This document shows, in pieces, positions 6,970-29,585 of a stretch of DNA of 34,746 nt (positions are counted from its first letter, which is position 1; each line of letters starts with the position of its first letter). Where the stretch lies: positions 11,703,950 through 11,738,695 of the forward strand of contig NC_057754.1 in NCBI RefSeq assembly GCF_004010195.1, written 5' to 3'. The notes below the pieces were generated by a model. The model did not search any database. It was not told where the DNA came from and saw nothing but the letters and a program-made list of their open reading frames with translations. This stretch comes from Chiloscyllium plagiosum (lineage: Eukaryota). Both the position numbers and the translations under genes were made by a program.

Positions 6970-7001
6970 ACCTGATGAAGGGCTCCTGCCCGAAACATCG
7001 A
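6970..7001 (+). ncRNA. Minimal hammerhead ribozyme-like motif (slightly decayed)
   Basis: C-CTGATGA-A-GGGC-tcct-GCCC-GAAA-CA-TC-GA. Confidence 0.65.
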
Positions 7002-7881
7002 TTTTCCTGTTTCCTGACCTGCTGTGCATTTCCAGCACCACTCTAATCTTGACTCTAATCTCTAGCATCTGCTGTCCTTACTTTCACCCAAGATAACACC
7101 ACTAATTTTCCCAAGTTCCCAAGTCTTCTTGTCTTTCTCCATGGTAAACACAGAGGAGAAATATTTATTGAGGATCTCGCCCACCTTCACTTTGGTCCTT
7201 CAAGGGCCCTATTCTCTCTCTAGTTATTCTTTTTCCTTTAATATAGTTAACAAATCTTTTTGGATTCACCCTAATCTTCTGAGCCAAGGGTATCTGTGCT
7301 CCTTTTCACCCTCCTGATTTCCTTCTTCAACAACCTCCTGTATCTCCTATATACCTCCAGGGATTCTGTTGTTTCCAGCTGCCCGTACCTGAGCCTTACC
7401 TCCCTTTCTCTGGTCAAAGCCTGAATATCGCTTGTCATCCAGGGTTCCCTATTCCTGCCAACCTTGTCCTTCACCCTCATAGGAAAATATAGATCTTGAA
7501 TTCTAGCTATTTCACTTTTAAAGGCCTCCCACTTGCCGGAGGTCCCATTTGCCTGTCAATCCCTGCAAGCTCCTGTCCAATTCCATCAAAATTCACTTTG
7601 CCCCAATTTAGAACTTGAACCTGTAGACCAGTTTTGTCCCATTCTCTAACTATTTTAAAATTAAAAATAACTGTGGTCACTGATCGCAAAGTGTTCCCCC
7701 ACTGTCACTTGTTCTGCCCTATTTCCCAAGAGTAGGTCAAGTTTTGCCCCTGCTCGATTGGGACCCTCTATATACTGCTCCAGGAAATTTTCCGGAATGC
7801 AATTAACAAATTCCACCCCATCTAACCCTATGGCGGTTCCAGTCTATCTCAGGAAAATTAAAATCCCCTACTACGACAATC

Positions 7882-8095
7882 ATAGAACATAGAAAAGTAC
7901 AGCACAGAACACGCCCTTTGGCCCACGCTGTTGTGCCGAGGTTTAATCCTAACGTAAAATATAGTAACTTAAGCTACGCACCCCTCAACTCACTGCTATC
8001 CATGTGCAAGTCCAGCAGTCGTTTAAATGTTCCCAATGACACTGCTTCCACCACAACAGCTGGCAACACATTCCATGCCTTCACAACTCTCTGCG
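7882..8095 (-). mobile_element. Short CR1-type LINE 3' end
   Basis: CATAGAACATAGAA tail repeat followed by reverse-strand 3' UTR and ORF2-end sequence. Confidence 0.75.
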
Positions 8096-8598
8096 CTCCC
8101 ACAAGTCTCCCCAACCTCCCTGCATATTTGTTCCTCTGATTTCCGTTGACTATTTGGGAAGTCTATGGTACAACCCCAATAAGGTCACCAACCCCTTCTT
8201 ATTTCTTAGTTCCACTCACAAAGCCTCAATTGAATGATCCTTCAATTATTTCATCTCTGATTACTGCTGTGATACTCGCCTTAATAAAAAATGCAACTCC
8301 CCCTCCCCTCCTTCCAACACTGCTGTCCCGCCTAAAGCACCTGTTATCTGGCATATTAAGCTGCCAGTCCTGTCCTTTCCTTAGCCATGTTTCTGTAAAT
8401 GGATAACATATCCCAGTTCCATGTACCTATCCACACCCTGAGTTCATTGGCCTTATTTGGCAGCCCTTTTGCATTGAAATAAGTGCAATTTAATCCAACA
8501 GGCATTCCTCTCTTCCTGTCATATTCCAACTAGACTGTCCCTTCAACTTACTATTTCTGATGACTGTTGTTTTGCTGTCTTTATCACATAATATGTAG

Positions 8599-8645
8599 TT
8601 CTTAGGATATTCAGCTACATAATATGTAGCTGAATATCCTAAGAA
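8599..8645. repeat. Perfect palindrome with 23-bp arms and a 1-nt centre
   Basis: TTCTTAGGATATTCAGCTACATA-A-TATGTAGCTGAATATCCTAAGAA. Confidence 0.95.
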
Positions 8646-8678
8646 AAGAAACATAATATATAGGAAATAAAATAAATT

Positions 8679-8960
8679 ATAGAATCCCTATATTGTGGGA
8701 ACAGACCATTCAGCCCAACAAGTCCATACTGACCCTCTGAAGAGGATCTCACCCAGCTATCCCCATCCCCTAACCCTGTAGACCTGCACCTAGCCTGCAT
8801 ATCTTTGGATTGTGGGAGGAAACTAGAACACCTCGCAGAAACCCGCACTGACCCAGGGAGAATGTGCAAACTCCACGCAGTCAGTCACCCCAGGGTAGAA
8901 TTGAACCTGGGTCCCTGGTGCTGTGAGGCAGCAGTGATAACCACTGAGCCACTGTGCCAT
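8679..8960 (-). mobile_element. HE1/V-SINE-like element (older copy)
   Basis: Same core and A/B boxes on the reverse strand, more diverged than the other copies. Confidence 0.88.
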
Positions 8961-9573
8961 CTTTATGGACGTTTGCTGAAACTGTTAGCATTCACTGCTG
9001 ACTCTGAAATTAAATAAAATGTTCAACGTGCTTGTGAACAACACATTATCCAAGGATTGCACAAAGGCTTGGCATCTATTGTTTGGAACTGTTTAATTGA
9101 ATTGATAACTTATATTTACTTTATTTTCTGTTCAATTTATCCCTTATCTGTGTCTGTCTATTGGTGTGAATGGAGGTCATGCTCAAAGAATCATACATAT
9201 TAATTAGATTACCTGACTGATTATCTTTGTTTTGCTCAAGTTATTGATACTTCTTGTTTAAGTTTTAAACTTGGTGTCCAAGATCAGTTATTCTCAAAGT
9301 CAGGTAATGAACAATTGTGAAGTAGGATCGTGACACTGATTTAGTTTGGCTTGTAATTAGTGTTTTGAAGAAGCTTTGGGTGGTCAATATTAGCTCAGAA
9401 GCAGAAATGATCTCCAGTGTAGGTCAAACAATTTCTGAACATTGGGAGATAAAACTGGAAAATCAGCAGCATATAACCAGAGATCAAGAGAAATACAAAC
9501 TTCATTTGGACACAACTGGCAAAAGTAACAACAAAATACCTCACAAAGTTCAAATAAACCCATTATTAGAGGC

Positions 9574-10590
9574 ATAGTCAAAGATGTAAACTGCACAGAA
9601 ACAGATCCTTCGGGCCAATCACTCCATGTTGACCATAATCCCAAATTAAGCGAGTCCAACCTGCCTTGGCCCATATCCTTCCAAGCATTTCTTATGCATG
9701 TACTCCTCTAAATGCCTTTTAAATGTTGGAACTGTACCCGCATCCGGCACTTCTTCTGGAGGTTCATATCACAGACAAATCACTCTTGACTGAAAAAAAA
9801 TTGTCCCTATATCTTTTTTAAATCTTTCTCCTCTCACCTTAAAGATATGCTCCCTTTTCTTGTAATCCCCCACCCCGAGGGAAAAGACATGTGCCATTCA
9901 CCTTACATGTACACCTTTATAAATCTCTGTAAGATCACCTCTCAACCTGGTTGAGAAAAAGGTTCTAGACTCTCCTTATGATTCAAATGCTTCATTCCTG
10001 GCAATACCCTGGTAAATCTCTTCTGAACCCTCTCCAGCTTAATTATATCTTCTTTAAAGCAGCGAGACCAGCACTGGAGACAGTACTACAGAAGAACATC
10101 CTGTACAATCTCAACATCCTTTACTCAAAGATCTGAGCAATGAAGGCAAGCATATAAAATGCCTTCTTAACCACCCTATCTGTATGTGACAGCTCTCATG
10201 ACCAGTCATCTCGAAGCTAGCTTGCTGTGACTCCATGACTGCTGTCTGACCTGCTGTGATCTCCAGTGTTTATTTTTAGGATCATCTATATGTGATGCAA
10301 GCTTCAAGAGATTATGTACCTGAACCCCTCGTTCTCCCTGTTTCGCAACACTACCCAAGGCCCTATTATAAATTGTATAAATCTTGCTATTGTTTGCTTT
10401 ATCAAAATGCAATATCTCTCATTTATTCAAGTTAAACTTCACTCTTCAGCCCATCGACCCAATTGAACAAAATCTCTTTGTAATCTTAGATAACCTTCTT
10501 CACTGTCCACTGTACCATCAATCTTGCTGTCACCTGCAAACTTACTAATCATGCTTTCTATATTTTCATCTAAGCTATTTATATAAATGA
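9574..10590 (-). mobile_element. CR1-clade LINE 3' portion, decayed
   Basis: AAACTTACTAATCATG (SKFA motif on the reverse strand), MHFDKANNSKIYT, and a 3' UTR near 9575-9680. Confidence 0.8.
10190..10283 (+). mobile_element. Short degenerate Penelope-like terminal-repeat insertion
   Basis: Contains TGCTGTCTGACCTGCTGTG. Flanked by ATCTGTATGTGA (10178-10189) and ATCTATATGTGA (10284-10295). Confidence 0.6.
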
Positions 10591-10772
10591 GAAGTAAAAC
10601 AGGAAGTCAGACAATGGCAGAGAGGTGATGAGGGAAAGCAAAGGCCAAACAAAGCAATAGATGGACATGGATTCAGATCCACAGTAAGTGAGTCACACCA
10701 GCCTCACAGTTTTGGAACCAGAACATGGCACAGGAGGATTGACAGTGTCGACAAATGCTCAAAAACACTCAC

Positions 10773-10819
10773 CTCGCAAACACTTCCACTGTTTCGAAAT
10801 CTCCTGCTGGAACCTGCAG
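10773..10819 (-). other. Candidate small internal exon (probably untranslated)
   Basis: The minus strand reads tttacttacttttgatatgttttcag|CTGCAGG...TTTGCGAG|gtgagt in non-repetitive DNA; no transcript evidence. Confidence 0.35.
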
Positions 10820-11349
10820 CTGAAAACATATCAAAAGTAAGTAAAAGATATTCCTGCTGCCTTCAAATCTTATAAGTCCCTGCAAAAGGTGTTTCAGAAA
10901 CGTGTAGTTTCAGTTGGAGGTGAAAAATGTAGCGGAGACAGGGTTCCAGGGGATAATAAGGAATGTGGGGTTGAAGTCAGAATCAGATCAGCTGGGATCT
11001 TACAGAATACAGTAGTAGAACAGGCTGAATGGGCCAAATAAGACTAAAAGACACAAGAACACAAATAGACCATCCTGCCCATCAAGTCTGCTCTACCATT
11101 TGATAATGGCTGATTATTTCTCAGCCATTTTCTCAACTCCATTCGCCTACTTGCTCTCCATAACGCACGGTCCCCTTACTAATCAGAAACCTACTGCTGT
11201 CTTAAATGACTTCATCTCCACACTTTCTGCGGCAAAGCATTCCACAGATTATCCACAAACATGCCCTCAACTTGCTACTGATCCAAACGCCTGTTGTTGA
11301 CCCTGGGACTGTTTCAGCTATTTTTTGGCATAATTTTACATGGATAAGC

Positions 11350-12160: not shown

Positions 12161-12444
12161 CGAGACAAACAAAGGATCATCGGTTCCTGAGTTAACTTCC
12201 AAGCTTGGTCTCAAAAACAAACAACTCATTCATTCTTTTGATCACCAGCTGCTGCTCAGTCAAAAGCCATTTGTTCAGCTCTCAGATTCAAAACGAAAAT
12301 ATTTTTAAAATCTGCAAGTTTTTTGACAACGCACAGTGGAAAAACCTTTAACCAGTGACACAGATTGAGTTAGTGGGGCAGTATTGATTGGAGTTGAGAA
12401 CAATGAGAGGTGGTCTCATTGAAGCAAATTAGATTCTGAAGGGT

Positions 12445-14326
12445 CTTCGGAAGCCAGGGAAGTGATTGCTGGGCTCCTTCTTGTGATGTTTGTGTCATCG
12501 ATAGTCACAGGTGAGGGGCCAGGAGACTGTAGGTTGGCTGAAGTGGTTCCACAATTTAAGAAAGATGGTAAGGAAAAGCCAGTGAACTCTCGGCTGGTGA
12601 GCCTGACATCGGTGGTGGGCAGACTGTTGGAGGGAATCCTGACAGACAGGATTTACTTGCATTTAGAAAGGCAAGGACTGATTTGGGTTAGTCAACGTGG
12701 TTTTGTGCATGGAAAATCATGTCTCACGAACTTGACTGAATTTTTTTAAGTAGTTTCGCGGAGCGCTGACCAGTGGACATATCTATATGGTCTAGGAGAA
12801 ACTGAGGACTGCAGATGTGAAGATCAGAGTCAAATGTGTGGCGCTGGAAAAAAACAGGTCAGGCAGCATCCGAGGAGCGGGTGAGTCGATGTTTCGAGCA
12901 GAACCCTTCATCAGGAGTGTGGGTACCTTCCCTTGCCATTACAAGAGGTATAAAACCTGCACCTACACCTACCACTCCTCACCTCCATTCAAGGCCCCAT
13001 TTTCCTGCACATCTGAACACCTCACCTACTGTGTCTGTTGGTTTTTATTTGGTTTCCTCTACATCAGGGAGACAAGAAGCCAATTTGTGGAATTCACAGA
13101 ACATCTCCAGAACACATGCACAAAACAACCCCACCATCATGTGGCTGACCACCTCAACTCCCCCTCCCACTCTACTAAGGACAGACAAGTTGCAGGCGCC
13201 TTCACCACCAAATCCTAGCCACCAAAACCTGGAGAAAGAACACTTCATCTTCTGCCTTGGGATCCTCCAACCACATGGAATCAATGTCAATTTCACCAGT
13301 TTCATCTCCTCTCCCCCAGCTTATCCCAGGTCCAGCCCCCACCAACTCAGCATCATCCTCTTGAACTGTCCTACCCGTCCATCTTCCTTCCCACCCATCT
13401 ACTCCACTCTATCACCATCACACCCCACCTTCATCTACCTATCTTCTCCCCAGCTCCACTCCCCTCCCATTCATCACACACCACCCCCTATAGTCCTGGT
13501 GAAGTGCTTATGCCCAAATTGTTAAGTTTCCTGCTCCTCGGATGCTGTCTGACCTGCTGTGATCTATATGGACTTCAGTAAGATGTTCGACAATGTTCCT
13601 CATGGTAGACTGGTTAGCAAGGTTAGATCTCATGGAATACAGGGAGAACTAGCCATTTGGATACAGAGCTGGCTTGAAGGTAGAAGACAGAGAGTGGTGG
13701 TGGAGGGTTGCGTTTCAGAATGTAAGCCTGTGACCAGTGGTGTGCCACAAAGATTGGTGCTGGATCCATTACTTTTTGCCATTTATATAAACAATTTGAA
13801 TGTGAACGTAGGAGGAATGGTTAGTAAGTTTGCAGATGACACTAAAATTGGAGGTGTAGTGGACAGCGAATGAAGGTACCTCAGCATACAACAGGAGCTT
13901 GATCAGATGGGCCAATGGGCTGAGGAGTGGCAGATGGAGTTTAATTTAGATAAATATGATGTGTGCCATTTTGGAAAGGCAAATCAGGGCAGGACATTTA
14001 CACTTAATGGTAAGGTCCTGGGGAGTCTTGCTGAACAAAGAGACCTTAGAGTTCAGGTTCATAGTCCTTGAAAGTGGAGTCACAAGTAAATAGGATAGTG
14101 AAGAAGGCATTAGGTCTGCTTTCTTTCATTGGACAGAGTATTGAATATAGGAGTTTACAGGTTATGTTGCGGTGTACAGGACATTGGGTAGGCCACTTTT
14201 AGAATATTGTGTGCAATTTTGGTCTCCCTCCTACTGGAAGGAAATTGTGAAACATGATAGAGTTCAGAAAAGATTCACAAGGAGGTTGCCAGGGTTGGAG
14301 GGTTTGAGCTATAGGGAGAGGCTGAA
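12445..14326 (+). mobile_element. CR1-clade LINE RT fragment interrupted by a Penelope-like element
   Basis: SQRGFVHGKSCLTNLTEFF, then IYMDFSKMFDNVPH and VSKFADDTKIGGVVDSE after the insertion. Confidence 0.92.
12791..13561 (+). mobile_element. Truncated Penelope-like element: inverted terminal repeat, GIY-YIG endonuclease remnant, direct terminal repeat
   Basis: FSCTSEHLTYCVC...FLYIRETR...EHL...HVADHLNSPSHS. Hammerhead motif on the minus strand at 12886-12916 and a decayed one on the plus strand near 13494. Perfect 10-bp duplication ATCTATATGG at 12781-12790 and 13562-13571. Confidence 0.88.
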
Positions 14327-14680
14327 TAGACAATAGGTGCAGAAGTAGGCCATTCAGCCCTTCGAGCTAGCACCACCATTCATTATGATCATGGCTGATC
14401 ACCCACAATCAGTATCCTGTTCCAGTCTTATCCCTTGATTTCACTATCTTTCAGAGCTCCATCCATCTCTTTCTTAAAAGTATCGAGAGACTTGGCCTCC
14501 ACTGCCTTCTGGGGCAGAGCATTCCATATATCCACCACTCTCTGGGTGAAGAAGTTTCTCCTCAACTCTGTTCTAAATGGCCGACCCCTTATTTTTAAAC
14601 TATGCCCTCTGATTCTGGATTCACCCATCAGCGGAATCATTCTTCCTGCCTCCACAATGTCCAATCCTTTACAAATCTTA
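14327..14680 (-). mobile_element. CR1-type LINE 3' end
   Basis: RGHSLKIRGRPFRTELRRNFFTQRVVDIWNALP, the canonical CR1 ORF2 C-terminus, plus 3' UTR. Confidence 0.9.
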
Positions 14681-14682
14681 AG

Positions 14683-16800
14683 GATAGACCAGATCTAAAA
14701 GTTGAAGTTCTAAATTGGAGAAAGGTCAGTTTTGATGGTATTAGGCAAGAACTTTCGAAAGCTGATTGGGGGCAGATGTTCACAGGTAAAGTGATGGCTG
14801 AAAAATGGGAAGCCTTCAGAAATGAGATAATGAGAATCCAGAGAAAGTATATTCCTGTTAGGGTGAGAGGGGAGGCTGGTAGGCATAACGAATGCTGGAT
14901 GACTAAAGAAATTGAGGGTTTGGTTAAGAAAAAGAAGGAAGCATATGTCAGGTATAGACAGGATAGATCAAGTGAATCCTTAAGAGTATAAAGGAAGTAG
15001 GAGTATATTTAAGAGGGAAATCAGGAGCGCAAAAAGGGGACATGAGATACCTTTGGCAAATAGAATTAAGGAGAATCCAAAGACTTTTTACAAATACATT
15101 AAGGACAAAAGCGTAACTAAGGAGAAAATAGGGCCCCTCAAAGATCAGGAAGGAAGCCTTTGTGTGTAGCCGCAGAAAATGGGGGAAGTACTAAATGAGT
15201 ATTTTGCATCAGTATTTACTGTGGAAAAGGATGTGGAAAATATAGATTGTAGGAAAATAGATGGTGACATCTTGCAAAATGTCCATATTGCAGAGGAGGA
15301 AGTGCTGGATGTCTTGAAATGCATAATGGTGGATAAATCCCCAGGACCTGATCAGGTGTACCCCAGAACTCTGTGCGAAGATAGAGAAGTGATTGCTGGG
15401 CCTCTTGCTGAGATATTTGTATCATCGATAGTCAGAGGTGAGGTGCCGGAAGACTGGAGGTTGGCTAAGGTGATGCCACTATTTAAGAAGGGCAGTAAAG
15501 ACAAACCAGGAAACTATGGACCAGTGAGCCTGACGTCAGTGGTGGGCAAGTTGTTGGAGGGAATCCTGAGGGACAGGATGTACATNNNNNNNNNNNNNNN
15601 NNNNNNNNNNNNNNNNNNNNNNNNNNNNNNNNNNNNNNNNNNNNNNNNNNNNNNNNNNNNNNNNNNNNNNNNNNNNNNNNNNNNNNNNNNNNNNNNNNNN
15701 NNNNNNNNNNNNNNNNNNNNNNNNNNNNNNNNNNNNNNNNNNNNNNNNNNNNNNNNNNNNNNNNNNNNNNNNNNNNNNNNNNNNNNNNNNNNNNNNNNNN
15801 NNNNNNNNNNNNNNNNNNNNNNNNNNNNNNNNNNNNNNNNNNNNNNNNNNNNNNNNNNNNNNNNNNNNNNNNNNNNNNNNNNNNNNNNNNNNNNNNNNNN
15901 NNNNNNNNNNNNNNNNNNNNNNNNNNNNNNNNNNNNNNNNNNNNNNNNNNNNNNNNNNNNNNNNNNNNNNNNNNNNNNNNNNNNNNNNNNNNNNNNNNNN
16001 NNNNNNNNNNNNNNNNNNNNNNNNNNNNNNNNNNNNNNNNNNNNNNNNNNNNNNNNNNNNNNNNNNNNNNNNNNNNNNNNNNNNNNNNNNNNNNNNNNNN
16101 NNNNNNNNNNNNNNNNNNNNNNNNNNNNNNNNNNNNNNNNNNNNNNNNNNNNNNNNNNNNNACTTAATGGTAAGGTCCTAGGGAGTGTTGCTGAACAAAG
16201 ATACCTTGGAGTGCAGGTTCATAGCTCCTTGAAAGTAGAGTCGCAGGTAGATAGGATAGTGAAGGCGGTGTTTGGTATGCTTTACTTTATTGGTCAGAGT
16301 ATTGAGTACAGGAGGTGGGAGGTCATATTGCAGCTGTACAGGATATTGGTTAGGCCATTGTTGGAATATCGGAAAGTTGTTGTGAAACTTCAAAGGGTTC
16401 AGAAAAGATTTACAAGGATGTTGCCAGGGTTGGAGGATTTGAGCTATAGGGAGAGACTGAACAGTCTGGGGCTGTTTTGCCTGGAGCGTCGAAGGTGGAG
16501 GGATGACCTTATAGAGGTTTGTAAAATTATGAGGGGCATGGATAGGGTAAATAGGCAAAGTCTTTTCCCTGGGGTCCGGGGGTCTAGAATTAGAGGCCGT
16601 AGGTTTGACGTGAGAGGGGAAAGATATAAGAGACCTACGGGGCAACTTTTTCACACAGAGAGTGGTACATGTATGGAATAAGCTGCCAGAGGAAGTGGTG
16701 GTGGCTGGTACAATTGCAACATTTAAGAGGCATTTGGATGGGTATGGGAATAGGAAGGGTTTGGAGGGATATGGGCCGAGTGCTGGCAGGTGGGACTAGA
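14683..16800 (+). mobile_element. CR1-clade LINE ORF2 (relatively young); contains gap 15586-16161
   Basis: LNEYFASVFT, DKSPGPDQVYPR, VSLTSVVGKLLEGIL and LVRPLLEY; a few stops and frameshifts. Confidence 0.93.
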
Positions 16801-17110
16801 TCCCCTCTTATCCTTCTCAACTCAAGTGTATACAAGCCCAGTCACTCCAATCTTCACCATATGATAGTCCCACCATTCCGGGAGTTGACCTTGTGAACCT
16901 ACGCTGCACTCCCTCAATAGCCACAATGTGCTTCCTCAAAATTGGAGACCAAAACTGCACACAATACTCCAGGTGCAGTGTCACCAGGGCCCTGTACAGC
17001 TGCCGAAGGACCTCTTTGCTCCTATACTCAATTCTTCTTGTTATGAAGGCCAGCATGCCATTAACTTTCTTCAGTGCCTGCTGTACCTGCATGCTTGTTT
17101 TCATTGACTG
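16801..17110 (-). mobile_element. CR1 ORF2 internal fragment in the opposite orientation
   Basis: LYRALVTLHLEYCVQFWSP in ORF 16817-17104(-). Confidence 0.85.
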
Positions 17111-17798
17111 AGGCTGGGGCTGTTTTCCCTGGAGTGTTGGAGGCTGAGGAGTGATCTTACAAAGGCATGTAAAATCATGAGAGGCATGGATGGATAAATA
17201 GACAAGGTCTTTTCCCTGGGATCGGGGAGCCCAGAACTAGAAAACATGGGTTTAGGGTGAGAGGGGAAAAAATTCAAAGGGACCTAGGGCAACTTTTTCC
17301 ACGCAGACGTGGTACAAATATGGAATGAGCTGCCAGAGGAAGTGGTGGAAGCTGGTACAATTAGAACATTTAAAAGGCATTTGGATAGGTATGTAAATAG
17401 GAAGGGTTTAGAGGGATGCGGGCCAAATGGGACTAGATTAGGTTAGGTTAGGATGTCCGGTTGGAATGGAGGAATTGGACCGAAGGGTCTGTTTTTGTGA
17501 TATATGATTAGATTAGATTACTTACAGTGTGGAAACAGGCCCATCGGCCCAACAAGTCCACACCGACCCGCCGAAGCGAAACCCACCCATACCCCTACAT
17601 TTACCCCCTACCTAACACTATGGGCAATTTAGCATGGCCAATTCACCTGACCTGCACATTTTTGGAATGTGGGAGGAAACCGGAGACCCGGAGGAAACCC
17701 ACGCAGACACGGGGAGAACGTGCAAACTCCACACAGTCAGTCGCCTGAGGCTGGAATTGAACCCGGGTCATATATCTCTATGACTCTGACTGTATGAC
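17111..17798 (+). mobile_element. CR1 3' end with a SINE inserted in its tail
   Basis: Homologous to 16465-16800. The 3' UTR includes TTGGACCGAAGGGTCTGTTT; the tail CTATGACTCTGACT resumes after 17770. Confidence 0.85.
17508..17770 (-). mobile_element. HE1/V-SINE-like element lacking its 5' end (A-box region)
   Basis: (TTAGA)n tail, V core and B box; ends just past the B box. Confidence 0.9.
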
Positions 17799-17799
17799 A

Positions 17800-18181: not shown

Positions 18182-18928
18182 CATAGACTGAAATAAAATG
18201 GAAACAGACCCTTCGGTTCAACTTATCCATGCTGATCAGATATTCTAACCTAATCTAGTCCCATTTGCCAGCATTTGATTGCTTCATTCCTGATGAAGGG
18301 CTTTTGCCTGAAACGTCGATCTTCCTGCTCCTCGGATACTCCCTGACCTGCTGTGCTTTTCCAGCACCACTCTAGTCTAGACCCCTACATCTCTCTAAAG
18401 CCTTCCTATTCATATACCTATCCATATGCCTTTTAAATGCTGCAATTGTACCAGCTTCCACTACTTTTTCTGGCAGCTCATTTCATACATGTATAACCCT
18501 CAGCATGAAAGGATTGCCCCTTAGGTCCCTTTTATATCTTTCTCCTTTGACCCTAAACCTATGTCCTCTAGTTCTACACTCACCCCAGGGAAAAGACCTT
18601 CTCTAATTATCCTATCCATGCCCCTCATGATTCTATAAACCTCTATGAGGTCACTCCTCAGACTCCGGCATTCCAGGGAAAACAGCCCCAGCTTATTCAG
18701 CCTCTCCCAATAGCTCAAATCCTCCAAATCTGGCAACATCCTTGTAAATATTTTCTGAACCATTTCAAGTTCCACGACATCCTTCCGATAGGAAGGAGAC
18801 CAGAATTACAAGCAATATTCCAAAAGTGGCCTAATCAACAACCTGTAAAGCTGCAATATGACCTCCCAACTCCAATACTCTGACCAATAAAGGAAAGCAT
18901 ACCAAATGCCTTCTTCACTATCTTATCT
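18182..18928 (-). mobile_element. CR1 3' portion
   Basis: LEMVQKIFTRMLPDLEDLSYWERLNKLGLFSLE, plus 3' UTR. Confidence 0.88.
18280..18381 (+). mobile_element. Solo Penelope-like terminal repeat (family 1) with a hammerhead motif at 18288-18319
   Basis: TC-CTGATGA-A-GGGC-tttt-GCCT-GAAA-CG-TC-GA followed by CTGACCTGCTGTGCTTTTCCAGCACCAC. Confidence 0.8.
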
Positions 18929-19777
18929 TCAGTTTACAGAAACAATATGGATGTTCTTTCCATTGGATTAGAATTTATTTGATCATCCAGACAGCAGAGA
19001 CAGAGATCCCTACACTATGGAGATCCTGTGGAAATATCAGGACAATGACAGGGATACAGTTACCCACCTGAGCTGACCACCCAATGGTGCAGTCACACCA
19101 GGGTCAGACAATTTCTCTGCTCCACGTGCAGGAAGAATTCAGTCAGACATTTAGGTGCTGAGAGCCCTGTTAAGTTTACAGGGAGTTACAGGAGTTGGAT
19201 TCTGTGGGATTGCTGCTTTTTATCCCACCCACCTTCATCTTCCCTTCATATTGGCCTTTTCCTGCAGTAAGTGTACAAACCAGCAGAGCCGCACATGCAG
19301 ATTTTGGCTCAGAATGGTTGGGGGGGGTGGAAAGAGTGTGGGCTACGCATGGTCACGCCCACTCACGGTCACATCACGACATTGGCGGACACCCACCAAA
19401 AACAAAGACTAACGGCCGTTAAACGGGGCCTGTTTCAGGAGGAGGCCCGAGGACTCCGCTGCACCAGAACACTCAGGTTTGGGGATTGCGACCTCAACTC
19501 CACAATTATGAATTATACTTTCCAGAATGTTTCTCCGACAGCTGCCTACTTTAACCTTTGCCTACTTTAACCTTTACCTACCACCCATGGAATGTGATAA
19601 ACTTCCAACCGTCACAGACATGTTCGATATCCCAATCAGCTGTGCGCATGCTCCACTCTGCCACCCGCCTGATTGACGGCGCAGAGCCAATAGGAAGCAA
19701 GAGGCGGGATAGGAGCTGCCGGCCATCCATTCAGAGTGAGCGAGGGACTCACCCTAACCAATCAACGATTATGGGGC

Positions 19778-19914
19778 TCTGGATTAGTTCTGCTGGAAGA
19801 GCACAGCAGTTCAGGCAGCATCCAAGGATTTATTCCTGATGAAGGGCTTTTGCCCGAAACGTCGATTTCGCTGCTCCTTGGATGCTGCCTGAACTGCTAC
19901 GCTCTTCCAGCACT
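19778..19914. mobile_element. Foldback Penelope-derived cassette enclosing a perfect hammerhead motif
   Basis: Arms TGCTGGAAGAGCACAGCAGTTCAGGCAGCATCCAAGGA and TCCTTGGATGCTGCCTGAACTGCTACGCTCTTCCAGCA. 17-bp duplication ATCAACGATTATGGGGC (19761-19777) and ATCAATGATTATGGGGC (19915-19931). Confidence 0.88.
19834..19865 (+). ncRNA. Minimal (short stem III) hammerhead ribozyme motif, intact core
   Basis: TC-CTGATGA-A-GGGC-tttt-GCCC-GAAA-CG-TC-GA; predicted cleavage after GUC. Confidence 0.78.
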
Positions 19915-20059
19915 ATCAATGATTATGGGGCGGTCTAGCGCTTTAACCTATCGGAGAGAGTGAGGGGCGGGATTAGTCCTACAACTAATCAGTGAAAGAG
20001 GAGGCGGGTCTGGAGCCAGAACTTGGTCCTGGACTGAAAGGCGAAAGTGGGTCCTGAAG

Positions 20060-20150
20060 GTTAGAGTGGTGCTGGAAAAGCACAGCAGGTATGGCATCAT
20101 CCGAGGAGGAGGAAAATCGACGTTTCGGGCAAAAGCCCTTCATCAGGAAT
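20060..20150 (-). mobile_element. Solo Penelope-like terminal repeat with an intact hammerhead motif (20117-20148, minus strand)
   Basis: TCGACGTTTCGGGCAAAAGCCCTTCATCAGGA is the exact reverse complement of 19834-19865. Confidence 0.82.
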
Positions 20151-20309
20151 GAGGCGGGACTGGGAGGGCATTGTTCTCACAATGTTTCTGCAGCACATTC
20201 AATGGAAGCATTTTCAGATAGTCAAATCCAAGCAGATCTCACAGCAAAGTCGAATAAAGACACTCCCCGTTCACGAACTCCTCAATATCATCGGCCTTTC
20301 ATCGTGCAA

Positions 20310-21300
20310 TGTAAAAGAATAATGCACAGAGGGGTACAGGCCCTTCCGCTTCCCCTAAACCTGCAACTACATTATTTAACCTTCCATACTGAAACTGTCT
20401 GCACTTACAGGATCCAAAGCTCACTGCTGCCTTTCTTTTCATGTATTCGTCCAGGTGTTCCTTGAATGCCTCCGTTGTGTCTGCTTCCGCCGCTTCCGCC
20501 GCTTCCTCTGTCAACACATTCCAGGCATTCACCACCTTTTGTGTGAAAAAACCTGCCTCACGTATATCTTTTAAACATCCTCTCTATTCCTGTACATTGA
20601 ACCTCTGTCCCCTGGTAATTGACCCCTCCACCCTGGGAAAAAGCCTCATACCTTCCACTCTATCCATGCCATTCACAATCTTATAAACTTTTATCAGGTC
20701 ACCCCTCAATCTCCTGTGTTGTAGTGAAAGCAAACCCAGTCCACCCAACCGTCATTCATAGCTAAAATACCCCATATCAGGCAATATCCTAGTAAACCCT
20801 TTTCCAAAGAATCCACATCTTTATGGTAGTGTATGCAATATTCAAAGGGTGGCCTAACTAAAGTTCTATAAAGCTGCTGCATAACTTGCCAATCTTTATA
20901 CTCAATGCCCCTTCCAGTGAAGTTAAAAATCACACAACATCAAGTTATAGTCCAACGGGTTTATTTGGAAGTACAAGCTTTCTGAGTGCTGCCCCTTTGT
21001 CAGGTAGTTGATGTAGGATCAGCGCTCTGAAAGCTTGTACTTCCAAATAAACCTGTTGGATTATAGCCTGGTGTTGGGTGATTTTTAATTTTGTCAACCA
21101 GCAACTCTACATCATGCCTTCCAATGAAAGCAAGCATGCCATTGGCCATTTCTACTAGCTTATGTACGTGCATTGCCACTTTTAGTGATCTGTGGACTTG
21201 CACACTCAGATCCCTGTGCTGATCAATACATATAAAGGTTCTGCCATTGACTGAACAATGTCCACCTGTAGTTGACCTTCCAAAGTGCATCATCTCACAT
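20310..21300 (-). mobile_element. CR1 3' portion interrupted at 20922-21116
   Basis: QLYRTLVRPPFEYC, VNAWNVL and EMMHFGRS on the minus strand. Confidence 0.85.
20922..21116. mobile_element. Foldback cassette, Penelope-like family 2
   Basis: Arms GTTAAAAATCACACAACATCAAGTTATAGTCCAACGGGTTTATTTGGAAGTACAAGCTTTC and its near reverse complement. Duplication CCTTCCAGTGAA (20910-20921) and CCTTCCAATGAA (21117-21128). Confidence 0.82.
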
Positions 21301-21641
21301 GTGTCCGGTAAATGGGCCTGTTTCATGAATGCCAACTTTCTATGTAGCAACAGAGTCTCTCTAATTCCCCTGCTTTCCTCCCAAAACTCTGCAAGTTTAT
21401 TTCTCTAAAAAAGGAAATTAGATGAGCATTTTAAGTCATTGGTTCTCCTCGGTTCCACCCGTAAGGTGAGAGGTCTGGGTAGGACCACTCATTCTGGAAA
21501 AGAAAGCTTTATTCCACCTGTGGTTTTGTAAAATGTTGTGCATAATACATACCCCAACATTTTAGAATTTACATAAATCCCTTAAATGAGGGGATTGAAG
21601 GCATAGTAACTAAAGATGGATTTAAGAAACCTAGGTTATTG

Positions 21642-21959
21642 GATTAGATTAGATTACATACAGTGTGGAAACAGGCCCTTCGGCCCAACAAGTCCACACC
21701 GCCCCGCCGAAGCGCAACCCACCCATACCCCCCTACATTTACCCCTTACCTAACACTACGGGCAATTTAGCATGGCCAATTCACCTGACCTGCACATCTT
21801 TGGACTGTGGGAGAAAACCGGAGCACCCGGAGGAAACCCACGCAGACACGGGGAGAACGTGCAAACTCCATACAGTCAGTCGCCTGAGGCGGGAATTGAA
21901 TCTGGGTCTCTGGCGCTGTGAGGCAGCAGTGCTAACCACTGTGCCACCGTGCCGCCCAC
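21642..21959 (-). mobile_element. HE1/V-SINE-like element, full length and young (CpGs retained)
   Basis: The minus strand starts GTGGGCGGCACGGTGGCACAGTGGTTAGC; V core and (AATCT)n tail present. Confidence 0.94.
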
Positions 21960-21964
21960 CACGA

Positions 21965-23035
21965 AGACATAAGGAGTTTACGTACCAATATTGGTAGATA
22001 GATTCAGTGAATATGCAAAATATCTTGCAGATGGACTAAAATGTTCACCTTGACTGGAAGGATAAATAAGAGCAAAGCATTACTTAAATGGAGAATGACT
22101 ACAGAATTTGGAGGTGGAGAGGGCTTTAAAGCATGTCACAGAGTTTGCATGTAGGAACAGCATATAATCAAGAAATATAATGGTTTGTTATCCTTTTTAT
22201 GACAGGAATTGAATAGAAATGTAAGGATGTTCTGAAATAAAAACAGAAATTGTGGAAAAAGCTCAGCAGGTCTAGAAGCATCTGTGCAGAGAAATCAGAA
22301 TTAATGTTTCAGGTCAAGTGTTTTGTGTCCTCAGAACTGATGGTTGCTAGGAAAATCTCAGTTTATTTCCAGAAGATAGGGTGGGGAGAGAGGGTATTGA
22401 GTAAATGATAGATGGGAATGGAGCCCAAACAGACAGAAGAACAGTTGGACAGACAAATGAATGGAAAATGACCTGGCTAGAAGGATGAAGAGCTATTAAT
22501 GGGGACTGGTACACATTAACAATAAGCTGTGTCTGATAGCAGAATACGTGATAACAAGGTCTGATGTCTGGGGATTGGGGTAAGGACATGGGAGAGCTCA
22601 AGCCCAAAAGTTATTGAACTCATTATTGAGTGTGGAGGGCTGCAGGGTCCCCAAGCTGAAAATAAGGTACTGTTCTTCCAGCTTGTGCTGAGCTTTGTTA
22701 AAGCACTGCAGCAAGACGGAGACAGAGATGTTGGCCAGGGAACAGGGTGGTGTGTTGACGTGGCAGGCAAGTGGAAGCCTTACCATGCCTTTTTTGCACA
22801 AAATATACTGAGAGCGGTTGAGCTTTTTCAGCAATTTCTGTTTTTGTTTCTGATTTAAAGCATCCACAGTTCTTTTGGCTTTTAATAAGGATGTTCTGCT
22901 TCATTTATGCAGAGAATTGGTAAATCCACATTTCAAATACTGTATGCAATTTTCATCATTATCTTTCAGGAAACATATAAATTTATTGGAGTGGTTCAGA
23001 GGCTGTTTATTAGATTGAAACCTGGAATAGGTGAC
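21965..23035 (+). mobile_element. Old CR1 RT fragment split by the insertion at 22235-22885
   Basis: Degenerate similarity to other CR1 copies (TTACTTAAATGGAGA, AATACTGTATGCAATTTT). Confidence 0.6.
22235..22885 (-). mobile_element. Truncated Penelope-like element with inverted termini (family 4)
   Basis: KLEEQYLIFSLGTLQPSTLNNEF (PLE C-terminus). Inverted ends AAAAACAGAAATTG..AAAAAGCTCA and TGAGCTTTTT..CAATTTCTGTTTTT. Perfect 13-bp duplication TAAGGATGTTCTG at 22222-22234 and 22886-22898. Decayed hammerhead at 22299-22338(-). Confidence 0.85.
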
Positions 23036-24963
23036 TGACAGTGAACCCGAGAAGCATGTTCAGGGAAGGACATTTGAAATAAAAACAAGGAGATAATCTG
23101 AGGAAAAAATATACCAAACTTAGATAAAGGAGGGAACATATGGGATATAGTAATTTATGCTTCTAAACTAAGTATATTCACACCATCCAGAATAATGTGT
23201 TCTGAATGTCTATCATTGATTTACAATATCTTTGCTCAAACCATATTCCTCTTCTTGAGCAGTCAGTAAGGATCAAGAATGACTTTCTTCCACTTAAGTG
23301 TTGTGGGTCCTGAGGTTATTCAGTAGTTCAAGGCTAGATCCACAAAAGCACTACCACATGTGGGGCAGATGATATTTGCTGAAGGGAATGGGAGTGATGC
23401 TCAGTCACATGCTTTTTCCATTGTTAATATTCATTTTCCATCTTGGCCTAAAGATGTTCAAAATTGTTGACTTCTTCGCAGATGCATCTTCACCAAAGTG
23501 GATGGTTTGGGTCAACAATTACCCCCCCCCAGTGAATGGGAATATTGGATTTTTCGTTTGAGAAAATGTGGAGACAAACTTGAATGCATTTCTCTGCCAA
23601 CCTGGAAATATTTTTCCTTGAGGATGCTTAGTCAGATTAAAGAGTATGTATTGGAAGCCCTCTATCAGGCATGTGGATGATGTGAACTGCCCAATGCAGA
23701 TGATTGATCATACCCAGCCCCTGAATTCAATGTTCTTTGGTCTGATCTGCACCTGGTATAACTTTTTACATGGGTCAGGTATGGCATGAAACACGAAATC
23801 AATAATCCACAAGGGCACCTGATAACGATGAATAAAACTAACTTCTCTCAGGGAGATAGAACATTGTGAACATGAGCTATTGCATTTAAAGTCTAGAAAG
23901 GAATCGTAACAAATCACTGCTTCTCAAAATTTCCCAGTATGACCCATTTTAATGCCTCAGAATCTGTCTCACCCAAAAATTACAGGTTTTGGGGTGACAG
24001 AGAATTGTTGATCAATGGGAGAAGGGGGAGGCAGGTGGGGTGTTAATAACAGATTATTCATGAATTTTAACCTCAATTATTAATGCAATAACATTCAGTT
24101 TATTCAGATTTTAAAACTGGCAATTTTTAAAATCTAACAGGATCCTGATTCTTTATATAATAGGGATGATTATTAATTGTAATAATTTTGATATTTCATA
24201 AATCAGAGGTGATTATTGATGAAATATTTTCCAAATTATTGAAGGAAGAAGCAACTGATTATAAATGAAAGCAACTGTATAAATAATTAAATCTTGATTC
24301 ATCATAAACCCACACACAGAATCTTAAAAGCATAGGTGGCAGCCATTTGGCCCATTATGCTGGCACTGTCTCTGAAAATACTGACAATTTGTTCCTTTTC
24401 CTTAAATGGTCTATCCCTTAATCTGAGACAAAGTCCCTGGTTCTAATCTGAACATCCTGGGGAGATATCAATCTACATCCATTCTGTCAGAACATTGTAA
24501 GTTTCAATGAGATCAAATATTATGATCCCAGTTGATGGAAATACTGCACAAGTCAAATCTCTGAATGAAATCTGACTTAATCTGAAACTCATGTTTCATT
24601 TTTGCAATTAAATTACACATTTGGTTAATTACTGAACATATTCACATGAGGCTACCAACATTCATTTTAATAATATAACACATTTATTGCATAAAATAAG
24701 GCTCTATACAAAGGTGACAATTTTGAAAGACCTTAACACATTTAAACAATTTCCCCAGTAAAATACTCAATCTCAGTGAAGTATCACTCTTGTCTTTTTT
24801 TCATCTGTTAATGGGATATGGTTGTTGCTGGCTCAACACTAACTGCTTGGCTGGTAGTGGTGGTGAGGTGCCTTCCTGAATGTCTGCCCTCATTAGGGTC
24901 TTCAGTCACACACATTGCTATTCTATCACTTTAAAACTTGATTCAAAGTTCCACATTATGATG

Positions 24964-25242
24964 TTAAAAATCACACAACATCAGGTTATAGTCCAACAGG
25001 TTTAATTGGAAGCACACTAGCTTTCGGAGCATCATCAATTTTTCAATGTATAATTTCAGTTACATCACACTGTAAATTTTTGCTATAAATTCTGTGTGTT
25101 AGGATTGAGCCCTCCACTACCACCTGATGAAGGAGCGATGCTCCGAAAGCTAGTATGCTTCCAATTAAACCTGTTGGACTATAACCTGGTGTTGCGTGAT
25201 TGTTAACTTTGTACACCCCAGTCCAACATCGGCATCTCCAAA
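24964..25242 (+). mobile_element. Foldback cassette, Penelope-like family 2, with a hammerhead motif at 25121-25155
   Basis: Inverted arms of ~70 bp. CAC-CTGATGA-A-GGAGC-gat-GCTCC-GAAA-GC-TA-GT. Duplication CCACATTATGATG (24951-24963) and CCACATTATTATG (25243-25255). Confidence 0.85.
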
Positions 25243-25618: not shown

Positions 25619-26186
25619 TGTTATTATGTTGTCACTTTAAAAAAAAAAGAGTTATTTTGTCATTGGTTTTATCAAGAAAGGTGGTAAAGGCAGAGGTGTT
25701 GAAGAATCTAGTATAATAACGGGAAGGGTCTTTCCAGTTCTCCCAATTCAGGTTTTTTCACTGTATTTTCACTGTAGCAGTCATAAGATGTGCGATTCCA
25801 CGGGAGTTGCAAGCTTCAGTAAAGGATTCCACTGATTTTCTGTTGAAGTTCCCTCCTGCCTGTAAGAATCTGTGTTTGAATTTTGCTTTTTGCCAAGGAA
25901 TGGGTTTATGGGACGTTACAGTATTGGAACAGTTATTTAGAAGTAGTTACTGTATTGAGTTGGCTAAGTTTTCCAACAGTTAAAATTATTCCAAATTCTG
26001 ATTTCTTTTGTTCATGTTTCAACTGTAGCGTTTAAATAAATTGTGTTTTGCTTAAAGCCCAAGTAGTTTGACCAGTTGCATCAGACCTGGAACATCCACT
26101 TCACATCTGCCTTTAAAATAAGAAAAAGTTAGGGTCTCAAGTACATTCTTAAAATATTTTGAGGTGGTCTGGCCTGGTCCATAACA
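25619..26186. mobile_element. Possible solo LTR
   Basis: Bounded by TGTTA...TAACA, with AATAAA near 26035; no clear target-site duplication. Confidence 0.3.
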
Positions 26187-26224
26187 GTGTGATGTGATTA
26201 ACAGGAAATTACAGCTCATGCAGT

Positions 26225-27814
26225 CACTTGTGGACTTGCTGCTGTCTAAGCAGATGTACTATTAGGAAGGATTTCTCAGTGAATCCTTTCCAAATTTAGT
26301 GAAGAATGACCTCTCTCCAATGTGAATTTGCTGGTGTACACTGATTTGAGACAATCATCTGAACCCAGTCCCGCAGAGAGTGCACTTGAGTGGTCTCTCA
26401 TTGGTGTGAACACAGTTCAATCCCCCAGAACTTTTAAAATACTTGCCTCATTGTGGACATTTAAAATGCCTCTCATCAGAGTGAACACATTGATGGCGTA
26501 TCAGATCTCAGGATCTTGTATAACATTTTCCACACACTGTGCATTTGAAAGGTCTCTCCCAAATGTGAACTCGCTGGTGAGTCAGGAGGTGGATTTTCTG
26601 AGTGAAACCCTTCCCACATACAGAGCAGGTGAATGGTCTCTCTCCGGTATGAGTGCGCTGGTGTGCAGTGAGACGAGATGACCGCTTGAACCCAATCCCA
26701 CACTGTGAGCACCTAAATGGTCTGTTGTCAGTGTGAACATGTTCATGTAACTTCAGTTCTCCAGAGCTTTTATAACACTTCACGCAGTCGGGACATTTGA
26801 AAGGTCTCACCTGAGTGTGAATTCGCTGGTGTGCCTTGAGGTGGGCTGATTCACAAAATCCCTTCCCACACTGAGTGCAGGTGAATGGCCTCTCCCCAGA
26901 GTGAACTCGTTGGTGTGTCAAAAGGGTGGAAAACCGAAAGAATATTTGTCCACATTCAGAGCAGATGAATGACCTCTCCCCAGTGTGAAGACGCTGGTGT
27001 AGAGTGAGTTGAGATGATCTCTTGAAGCCGTTTCCACAGTGAGAGCACCTGAACGGTCTCTCCTCAGTGTGAACACGGTGATGGATGATCAGCTCCCTGG
27101 AACCTTTAAAGCACTTTCCACACTCTGAACATTTAAAGGGTCTCTCCTCAGTGTGAACCACGTTGATGGGATTGCAGATAGTGAGAACTTTTAAAACACT
27201 TCCTGCAGTTTGGGCATTTAAAAGGTCTCTCCTCACTGTGAACCTGCTGGTGTGCCTTGAGGTGATAGGACTGAGTGAATCCACTTCCACATTCAGAGCC
27301 GGTGAATGGCCTCTCCCCAGTGTGAACGTGTTGGTGAACAGTGAGTTGGGATGACCACTTGAAGCCAGCCCTCCCAGTCGGAGCATGTGAACCGTCTCTC
27401 CTCAGTGTGAATACGCTGATGGGACATCAGCTCACTGGAACTTTTAAAGCACTTCCCACAGTCTGGACATTTAAAAGGTCTCTCCTTAGTGTGAACTCGC
27501 TGGTGTGTCAGCAAGGTCAGCAATTGAGTGAATCCTCTTTCACACAGGGAGCAGATGAATGGCCTCTCCCCTATGTGAATACGTTGATGAATTTTCAGTG
27601 CAGAATGATGGCTGAATCCCTTTTCACAATCCCCACATTTCCATGGTTTCTCCACAACGTGACTGCATTTATGGTTCTTGAGGCCAATTGATTGGCTGAA
27701 GCCTTTTTTGCATGCAGAACACAAGTATTTGTTCTCCCCATTGTGAATGGTGCTTTCTTCTTTTATGTTTAAAATGTGGTGATATTCTGGTTGTGATAAA
27801 CTGGGTGACTCCAT
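26225..27814 (-). pseudogene. C2H2 zinc-finger array gene without a visible KRAB/SCAN domain (~17-18 finger units), disrupted
   Basis: CxxC-x12-HxxxH fingers with [11 protein letters not shown] linkers across three frames. ATG at 27814. +1 frameshifts at ~27370-27376 and ~27158. In-frame TGA at 26508-26510, 26448-26450 and 26355-26357. Polypyrimidine tract plus CAG acceptor at 27876-27877, just upstream of the ATG. Confidence 0.88.
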
Positions 27815-28064
27815 TAGATCATGGTGTGATGTTTGCTTTCAGTTTGCAGCCTTCAAATCCCCCACTTCTCATACTCTGTGGATTAATTTGAAACAGAAGG
27901 CAGGAGTAAGAGAGAAGGCACAAAAACATAAAGGCAGGTTGTAAAAGCATACTGAGTGAATCTGGGGCAATTTGCTGGACAGGCACTTGGGAACAGTTAC
28001 CACAAAAGCTTCTCAAATGTCATAGAAGCTCAAAATTAATATCGATCAGAGAAGAAACCTGCTA

Positions 28065-28200
28065 CCTGGTGTGGGCCCACACAATTAGGTGAAGGGGTAA
28101 ATGTAGGGGAATGGGTCTGGGTGGGTTATGCTTCGGCAGGTCAGTGTGGACTTGTTGGGCCGAAGGGCCTGTTTCCACACTGTAATCTAATCTAAAAAAA
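28065..28200 (+). mobile_element. 5'-truncated V-SINE-like 3' end
   Basis: GTGTGGACTTGTTGGGCCGAAGGGCCTGTTTCCACACTGTAATCTAATCT. Confidence 0.88.
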
Positions 28201-28628
28201 AGACCGGCATGGAGCAGAGTGAGAGAGACATAGGGAGGATGTAGGAGAGTCAGGAAGCAAAGGATTTTATACATCTACAATTTGCCCTGAAATGTGTTCG
28301 GATGGTCCAAATCCTCAATCTCCACCAGCTCAAAGGATCAGGGGAGCAGATTTATGTGAAAATCTTCACCACCAAGTTACCTTCCAAGACACACGATCCT
28401 GACATGTTTGACATCCACTGCTGGAGGAACAGAGACTTCTTTTGACTGAACATTAGGAGGATGAAAGTCAATGCCTTCCATCCCTGTTACAAAGTCCATT
28501 CCCCAGCCACTGACTGAATCTCTTTCTCTGGCAACTGCATAATCCTCAAATAGACTGTTCAGAAGCTTGCTGCCATATTTCACCCCAAACTGAGATTCCA
28601 ACATATGCCCACATCATCAGTAAAACCA

Positions 28629-28860
28629 GGAGAAAGTGAAGACTGAAGATGCTAGAGATCAGAGTCAAAGAGTGTGGTGCTGGAAAAACAGAGCCAGTCA
28701 GGCAGTATCTGAGGAGCAGGAGAGTCTATGTTTCGAGCATTAGCTCTTCCTCAGGAAGGAGCCATCCTTAGTGAGATCAAAACACTCCTGATAAACAGTT
28801 TATGCTTGAAACGAAGATTCTCCTGCTCCTTGGCTTTTCCAGCACCCCACGTTTTGACTC
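28629..28860. mobile_element. Inverted pair of family-1 Penelope-like terminal repeats
   Basis: GGAGAAAGTGAAGACTGAAGATGCT start. Hammerhead motif at 28725-28756(-): TC-CTGAGGA-A-GAGC-taat-GCTC-GAAA-CA-TA-GA. Decayed plus-strand copy near 28786-28850. Confidence 0.75.
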
Positions 28861-29079
28861 AAAGACTTCCATCTTAGGAACATCAACTGAATCCATCCCA
28901 GTCGCAGCTCATCTGCTTCTGAAACTCTCATCCACTCCATTATTATCTGTACACTTAATGATCCTAACACTTCTCCACATTGAACCTTTTAGTAAGTGAG
29001 ATGACTGACCCTTGCGCTACCTGTCTCCTCACTCACACCAACTCTTACTGAGCCATCCTCAGTGGCATGAAAACATTGT

Positions 29080-29288
29080 CCCACAGGAGGGCCGCGCATG
29101 CCCTCTGCTACACCGTGACCTTATCAAGATGACATCTGCCCAGAGGAAGGCCGCGCATGGGCTCTACTACACCGTGACTTTATCAAGGTGGCATCCTCCC
29201 ACAGGAGGGCTGCACATGCCCTCTGCTACACCTTAGCCCTATAAAGATCGCATCCTCCCATAGGAAGGTCAAGCACGTGCTCTGCTAG
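29080..29288. repeat. 59-bp tandem repeat (3.5 units), candidate promoter of the zinc-finger gene
   Basis: Units start at 29080, 29139, 29198 and 29257, and contain GCCGCGCATG and AAGATGRC-like words. Confidence 0.85.
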
Positions 29289-29349
29289 CCAATGCGGATG
29301 GCATCCCGAAGTCTGTGCACACCTGCTCCCTCAACGAAATGTTGGAGCA

Positions 29350-29585
29350 AATTGCTGCAGAGCAAGTTTTGGAGATAACAGTGAGTCAGACATCATCAAT
29401 GGAGGGAGAACAAGCTAACGTTTGAGTCTGGATGACTCTTCATCAGAGCTGAAGTGAAGTGTGGCGGGGACACATTTATGCCATAGCTTGCGGGGTTATG
29501 TGGGTGTAGGGTGCTGGTGGACAAAAGATGTTGATAGTTCAGATTAAGGGATCGGAATGTGAGGATTGCAGAACAATGGTGTATC
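29350..29585 (-). mobile_element. Penelope-like terminal region (family 3) with a hammerhead motif at 29413-29450
   Basis: Minus strand: AGCT-CTGATGA-A-GAGTC-atcca-GACTC-(G lost)AAA-CG-TT-AGCT. Confidence 0.7.

Follow-up and report, generated by a model that had tools for sequence, protein, structure and literature searches.

Minimal type I hammerhead ribozyme motifs occur in a 34,746-nt stretch of the genome of the shark Chiloscyllium plagiosum (contig NC_057754.1, hereafter the window), where they very probably form the 3' ends of truncated Penelope-like elements, with the fold kept in a few master elements and the scattered copies inert. The window holds 33,133 called bases, and coordinates refer to window positions unless a locus is named. 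An initial annotation had placed a hammerhead frame at nine sites belonging to four families:

6970..7001, plus strand: decayed family 1 copy with a stem I of 1 bp and ACAT (pattern scan)
12886..12916, minus strand: decayed family 1 copy with ACAT and a shortened stem II, inverted partner of the truncated element at 12922-13561
18288..18319, plus strand: complete family 1 hammerhead whose 10.1-11.1 pair is G-U through CpG decay (pattern scan)
19834..19865, plus strand: intact family 1 minimal hammerhead (TC/GA, GGGC/GCCC, GAAA-CG-TC), predicted to be cut after 19863 (pattern scan; near-identical genomic copies)
20117..20148, minus strand: intact family 1 minimal hammerhead (pattern scan)
22299..22338, minus strand: family 4 copy with destroyed stem II and ACAT (pattern scan)
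25121..25155, plus strand: family 2 hammerhead with intact core and stem II, AGCT palindrome and 2 of 3 bp of stem I (pattern scan)
28725..28756, minus strand: family 1 variant with stem II GAGC/GCTC and decayed stem III, head-to-head with the remnant 28783-28833 on the plus strand
29413..29450, minus strand: family 3 copy with a stem I of 4 bp and a stem II of 5 bp, G12 missing, predicted dead

All nine sites exist, and a scan of the window recovers the CTGANGA...GAAA pattern at eight of them, but the minimal hammerhead is complete at only four (18288+, 19834+, 20117-, 25121+), which retain the core, stem II, the palindrome and at least 2 bp of stem I. The stem I of 25121+ is CAC/GTA, with 2 bp, the family 2 form having GTG. 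Site 29413- reads GACTC-AAA and lacks the catalytic G12, the general base of the hammerhead (PMC6155905), so the core is not fixed in every copy as had been proposed. ACAT replaces ACGT at 6970, 12886, 28725 and 22299. Two readings of the initial annotation needed correction: the 5' side of stem I at 6970+, given as TC, is AC, leaving 1 bp, and the cut-site TC of 28725- is TA. Its description of a decayed stem II at 22299- is accurate: 1 bp remains of the family 4 form GGGTC/GACCC. A homology search finds 21 recognisable element ends in the called bases of the window, so the nine sites are the nine best. Most window copies are broken and likely inert.

The core letters CUGANGA, GAAA and UH are present in the eight copies other than 29413-, and intact forms of all four families occur in the genome. 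In the intact copies a palindromic 15.1-16.1 stretch, ACGT or AGCT, takes the place of a stem III loop, as the initial annotation had noticed for the best-preserved ones. The core, the stems and the palindromic stem III support identification as a hammerhead from sequence. The motifs differ from the canonical Rfam type I (Schistosoma type), having a stem I of 2-4 bp against one of about 6 bp with loop 1-loop 2 contacts, and the Rfam scan of the window gave no hammerhead match at E<=10. Four weak Rfam matches in the window were set aside as chance or inverted-repeat hairpins.

In the window, seven sites combine the core, TH and a stem I of at least 2 bp, against a mean of 0.11 and a maximum of 2 in 500 dinucleotide shuffles; four of the sites also have a stem II of at least 4 bp and a palindromic stem III, a combination found in none of the 500 shuffles. 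Dinucleotide shuffles ignore repeats, and we therefore used a selection-free sample of core hits as the test. The sample drew on 31 contigs, from which 60 segments of 10 kb were taken at fixed positions, comprising 570,064 called bases. A stem II of at least 4 bp is present in 39 of 71 core hits taken without any pairing rule, versus 0 of 13 in the reversed sequence.

Three further hammerhead families, which the window lacks, were seen at other loci (L153:7119+, L141:2087-, L124:9735+, L106:4344+, L140:4332-); two of them have a longer stem II, T as the extra base and tails of their own, and one has GGGT/ACCC. Within family 1, a young subfamily (L098:9036+, L102:175+, L106:5050+, L158) has GAAT following the cut site, so that its stem I is 4 bp long instead of 2.

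The tails following the motifs of families 1, 3, 4 and 7 align well above shuffles, and the tail of family 2 does not. By this alignment families 1, 3 and 4 share one homologous tail and are not the independent families initially described. Three groups with unrelated tails can be distinguished: families 1, 3, 4 and 7; family 2; and families 5 and 6. By eye, the tails of families 1, 3, 4 and 7 share the motif TGCTG...CAGCA (for example at 18345-18370), which could form a hairpin just before the AC-rich end. By analogy with the description of a lizard element, this hairpin may mark the start of reverse transcription.

Covariation of the stems was assessed on 234 core hits from the window and collected loci, with five window-overlapping loci excluded. 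The hits were clustered by tail alone, and the majority sequences were aligned on the core letters without a pairing rule. For the four families of the initial annotation, which were picked for looking right, 32 of 36 cells are Watson-Crick, compared with 19.0 for shuffled partners (0 of 100,000). For all seven families, which are few and related, the count is 52 of 63 against 27.9 shuffled (maximum 43 in 200,000), with slid pairings giving 8-14; family 6 was hand-picked from three copies in a pairing-filtered list, and one sister subfamily was excluded. When 17 real copies, picked by hand, are aligned with MAFFT without fitting (some rows are off by one), the share paired is 76% against 63.5%, and both sides change at 8 of 10 pairs. 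Compensatory changes in stems I and II are found together with G10.1-C11.1 (GC in six of the seven family consensuses, GU in one) and a single extra base after position 9. In the palindrome the sole compensatory change is that of family 2 (GC versus CG), CA and TG being decay forms. All seven family types retain the catalytic letters, the NUH triplet and the palindrome, except that G12 is partly lost, through CpG decay only. Covariation thus holds between family consensuses.

Within family 1 the picture is different. In the 52 copies that span the motif, most of the variation is CpG decay: the 10.1-11.1 pair is GC in 36, GT in 13 and AC in 3, and the palindrome pair is CG in 25, CA in 13, TG in 10 and other in 4, in agreement with the initial interpretation of ACAT as CpG-decayed ACGT. 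AT at 10.2-11.2, found in 3 of the 52, is the sole compensatory change in stem II. The proposed covariation therefore stands between families and not within family 1, and a test among copies of one family would mostly fail: the fold is real, but copies decay once they have inserted. G12 is altered in 7 of the 52 copies versus 12 of 520 at the other core positions, the latter figure being biased low. Since C11.1-G12 and C15.2-G16.2 are CpG sites, methylation damage would strike the catalytic base and the palindrome first.

Could the hammerhead match have arisen by chance and been amplified by repeat copying? The repeats are not independent of each other and Rfam has no match, yet three groups with unrelated tails keep one core with differently paired stems. 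The selection-free sample (39 of 71 versus 0 of 13), the covariation between families and the unfitted MAFFT alignment contradict a chance origin, which we consider practically untenable.

All four families lie at the 3' end of a Penelope-like element, after a frame encoding reverse transcriptase (RT) and GIY-YIG, which bears out the association made initially. Upstream of the motif, relatives of families 3 and 4 have broken frames that encode RT, a CxxCxxC-type linker and GIY-YIG; relatives of family 2 reach such frames through a long CA-rich spacer; and the family 1 motif lies downstream of them in the window (5819-6130, 12922-13167) and in locus L160. The longest open frame seen in the shark's own genome, of 497 aa, retrieves 405 proteins at E<=1e-20. 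Most of the best 120 of these 405 homologs have PF26215, many have RVT_1 and some GIY-YIG, and 94 of the 120 contain the CX2-5CxxC linker pattern. A Pfam rescan of four homologs found RVT_1 in all four and GIY-YIG in three, and the DKG motif is present in both homologs checked. The best named homologs of the window's retroelement protein come from sharks and rays.

The elements likely belong to the Neptune clade, an assignment made by motif and reported vertebrate range only. The CX2-5CxxC linker and a C-terminal CCHH-type GIY-YIG are seen at 33750-34373 in the window and in loci L091 and L086, and such a finger characterises Neptune and Nematis but is missing from Penelope/Poseidon (PMC8557442). 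Features shared with Neptune as described there are the C-terminal GIY-YIG with two cysteines between GIY and YIG, the CX2-5CxxC linker, the DKG motif (in homologs), 5' truncation and the adjacent inverted copy; the linker is common to Nematis and hence not exclusive.

Exact intact matches genome-wide number 80,723 for family 1, 12,463 for family 2, 50 for family 3 and 238 for family 4, with no matches to the reversed-pattern control of any family. Their sum of 93,474 is a lower bound and corresponds to 0.26 per 10 kb, or about 26 per Mb, of the 3.56-Gb assembly. When CpG decay is allowed, family 1 has 153,184 matches, of which the 80,723 have all CpG sites intact. Tail-only queries recovered 155 element ends in the genome sample (2.7 per 10 kb). 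After removal of four tandem tail repeats, 151 ends remain: 82 reach the start of the core, 52 keep the core letters and 17 the whole fold, or about 0.3 intact motifs per 10 kb in 570 kb. The initial figure of about 3 per 10 kb thus fits the element ends and overstates the potentially self-cleaving motifs about which it was made, as intact motifs number about 0.3 and none in the sample has an intact same-strand partner. Extrapolation from the 570-kb sample suggests that the genome likely contains close to one million ends, about one in nine of them intact.

Adjacent copies of the same family in the sample are mostly arranged head-to-head (35 pairs, 27 of them within 235 nt), with 11 same-strand pairs at least 436 nt apart and 8 tail-to-tail pairs. 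Both copies are intact in none of the 11 same-strand pairs. The window has head-to-head pairs at 12886/12922, 19791/19834, 24963/25121, 28725/28783 and 20920/21009. An adjacent inverted truncated copy is a known insertion signature (PMC8557442); a head-to-head partner, being antisense, cannot supply the second half of a dimer. The 5' boundaries of sampled copies are spread across the motif and show no peak at the cut site (position 0), which speaks against the idea that copies start there. Of the 28 family 1 copies whose motif is recognisable in the 60 sampled loci (L098-L157), 12 end within 15 nt upstream of the core. This suggests that the structure limits copying; the estimate is rough, as upstream sequence differs between subfamilies. 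An alternative register of stem I (upstream CATTC, downstream GGATG), proposed by eye, was rejected, since neither the triplet nor the stem III that precedes it is conserved between subfamilies.

This arrangement makes it very unlikely that the short copies are non-autonomous retrozymes, tandem units of 170-400 nt travelling as circular RNA. Many copies are indeed just 100-150 nt long, and a 2026 preprint reports retrozymes from one chondrichthyan genome (bioRxiv 10.64898/2026.07.22.740005). However, no tandem arrays of intact motifs occur in the window or the 570-kb sample, the cores are broken in the sole close same-strand pair of the window (34415-34618), the 5' ends are staggered and extend into the GIY-YIG frame, and the excess of head-to-head over same-strand pairs (35 versus 11) is a known signature of truncated insertions. 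Non-LTR (long terminal repeat) retrozymes (PMC7229834; the same preprint) resemble the shark motifs in being type I with a weak stem III, working as dimers and reaching very high copy number. They differ in being tandem units with canonical stems and circular RNA, whereas the shark motifs are dispersed, staggered and often head-to-head ends of coding elements.

The preferred reading, that of a fold kept in few masters at the ends of Penelope-like elements, implies that selection on it is likely confined to those few elements that transposed. Judging from published relatives, the transcript of a partially tandem element would bring together two motifs, whose ACGT or AGCT palindromes would pair as stem III. 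Cleavage would follow GUC, CUA or GUU and would probably require the element's protein. Once inserted, the dispersed copies would decay and likely become inert. Dimer cleavage is reportedly claimed in the title of Lunse et al. 2017.

Folding predictions show none of the nine monomers in the active form: each buries the core in an inactive hairpin or does not form the hammerhead, and in the intact family 1 monomers the core is predicted to pair with the cut-site strand. The predicted dimer fold has -13.3 kcal/mol versus -28.9 to -37.6 for alternative dimers. These poor folds fit the published low dimer activity (PMC4209133) and the protein dependence of the lizard motif (PMC11167929).

Several points count against the preferred reading. 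The nearest-neighbour energies behind these folds ignore the tertiary pairs of the core. Pfam gave no match on the degraded own-genome frames themselves, and on the window frames solely GIY-YIG at E 0.11. None of three same-strand genomic pairs, 2.4-3.8 kb apart and considered as full-length elements, flanked a frame; they were independent insertions. We found no full-length element intact at both ends and therefore infer the dimer context. The core has changed less than the tail (2.3% versus 6.2%, Fisher p 0.0002), a difference that we did not use, since copies had been selected by a match running through the core, and subfamilies differ in the tail.

It is possible, if rather unlikely, that the fold is retained as a signal for protein binding or reverse transcription, cutting being vestigial or dispensable. 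The absence of clustering of 5' ends at the cut site and the 12 of 28 family 1 copies that stop just upstream of the core are consistent with such a role, as are two published results: catalytic mutants left the in vitro insertion of the lizard element unchanged (PMC11167929), and Naiad elements thrive without canonical hammerheads (PMC8557442). A signal alone, however, does not account well for the retention of catalytic letters, NUH and palindrome in all seven family types with G12 lost only by CpG decay. In the lizard element, moreover, cutting was lost with C3G and with G8C and came back in part in the double mutant (PMC11167929).

Of four RNA runs compared with the locus, one gave no reads. 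In a polyA single-cell run, of which about 2% was sampled, 966 reads fell on two motifs, in both directions, and came from other copies of the family. No pile-up of read ends was seen at the motifs, which is a weak test; the comparison covered 1.5 kb, and the unique flanks of the locus were almost uncovered. The RNA runs may come from related species, their best DNA matches sharing 0.25-0.36 of words.

These reads, together with at least 93,474 exact intact motifs, raise the question of whether a sizeable share of the dispersed intact copies cuts host pre-mRNAs, whether through pairing with another copy far along the same transcript, in trans, or in the presence of the element's protein, much as the lizard element's motif is switched on by its own protein (PMC11167929). 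We regard this as quite unlikely. No spot with many read starts or ends appeared in the reads sampled, the stem I of family 1 is just 2 bp, none of the 11 adjacent same-strand pairs sampled is intact in both copies, and the lizard RNA-seq data likewise lacked reads ending at the site (PMC11167929). An elaboration in which the copies form a latent network of cut sites in host pre-mRNAs, triggered by the Penelope protein or by pairing with distant copies and switched off by CpG decay of G12, seems at best equally improbable; if it were true, element activity would set off widespread cleavage of host RNA.

The motif class itself is already known. Minimal hammerheads (min-HHR) were described in pseudo-LTRs of metazoan Penelope-like elements by Cervera and De la Pena in 2014 (PMC4209133), with families showing compensatory changes, thousands of vertebrate solo copies and low activity even as dimers. 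The features in the initial annotation are each found there, and density alone is notable here. The likeness extends to the type I layout, the extra base between 9 and 10.1, G10.1-C11.1, the palindromic 15.2-16.2, several consensus families with compensatory changes, and mostly solo copies from truncated elements with close opposite-strand pairs. The stem I of family 1 is shorter (2 bp, 4 in one subfamily) than the 4-5 bp of schistosome families, and the shark count of at least 93,474 compares with about 9,000 motifs in Xenopus and about 4,000 in coelacanth, under differing search rules. Shark terms are absent from two searched supplementary files of that paper. We found no publication on these shark families in a search that fell short of most subscription literature and of repeat databases.

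The Poseidon element PAc of the green anole (Frangieh et al. 2024, PMC11167929) is likewise a vertebrate Penelope-like element whose terminal repeat contains a hammerhead. It belongs to another clade, without the linker finger, and its motif was assayed, compared with our evidence from sequence. PAc cuts only with the element's protein, its hammerhead is not needed for insertion in vitro, and no RNA-seq reads end at the site. The axolotl has 126,247 type I motifs (PMC7229834) in a genome of 28 Gb (bioRxiv 10.64898/2026.07.22.740005); the 93,474 of the shark, in 3.56 Gb, are fewer and several times denser. According to two reviews (PMC6765202 and PMC7761336) the in vivo role of such motifs is unresolved, and the shark genome, in which at least seven families differing in age co-exist, is a good one in which to ask about it. 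Beyond this, the result mainly confirms that RNA structure is readable from raw sequence.

The window contains further remnants of these elements:

2686..2785: head-to-head pair of tail-only family 1 ends
5819..6130, plus strand: RT remnant of a Penelope-like element, separated by an N gap from the 6970 copy downstream (tblastn E 1e-8)
10190..10277, plus strand: heavily decayed family 3 end, absent from the initial annotation
12922..13167, plus strand: linker zinc finger and GIY-YIG remnant (E 2e-6), followed by a decayed family 1 end at 13494-13561 on the same strand
19762..19931: head-to-head insertion of a tail-only copy (19791-19828, minus strand) and the intact 19834+ copy, between direct repeats
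20920..21094: head-to-head pair of decayed family 2-type ends, absent from the initial annotation
22600..22798, minus strand: GIY-YIG C-terminal remnant upstream of the family 4 copy (translation), with an inverted tail at 22811-22841 on the plus strand
24963..25033, minus strand: inverted partner of the family 2 copy, truncated within stem II
33750..34373, minus strand: remnant of RT thumb, CxxC linker and GIY-YIG with stops and frameshifts (tblastn E 1e-41; Pfam GIY-YIG only, E 0.11)
34415..34618, minus strand: two tandem family 1 ends with a 116-nt period, both cores broken

The 138-nt head-to-head insertion is flanked by 16-nt direct repeats (19762-19777 and 19916-19931, 15 of 16 identical), likely a target-site duplication. 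As RNA it would form a hairpin, the source of a chance Rfam match to mir-2007.

The CpG observed/expected ratio is 0.59-0.65 at 19501-20500, compared with 0.29 for the window, and the CpG-rich stretch 19300-20150 is promoter-like, with CCAAT and GC boxes. Both perfect family 1 copies lie in this stretch, a possible reason why their CpG sites have not decayed, although there are just two such copies and their own CpGs contribute to the ratio. A C2H2 zinc-finger array of about 17 fingers with an 84-nt period occupies 26300-27750 on the minus strand; its several frameshifts and stops reflect either a pseudogene or assembly errors. Local tandem duplications at 214-560 (178-nt period, 99%), 29074-29287 (three units of 59 nt) and 34397-34628 (116-nt period, 98%) may, where near-identical, be assembly artefacts. 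A frequent short interspersed repeat recurs at 960-1290, 4030-4350, 8690-8960, 17500-17770 and 21640-21960, and long repeat fragments at 1-950, 1300-2070, 2840-4860, 13560-17450 and 30600-33600 resemble what we take to be CR1-type long interspersed nuclear elements.

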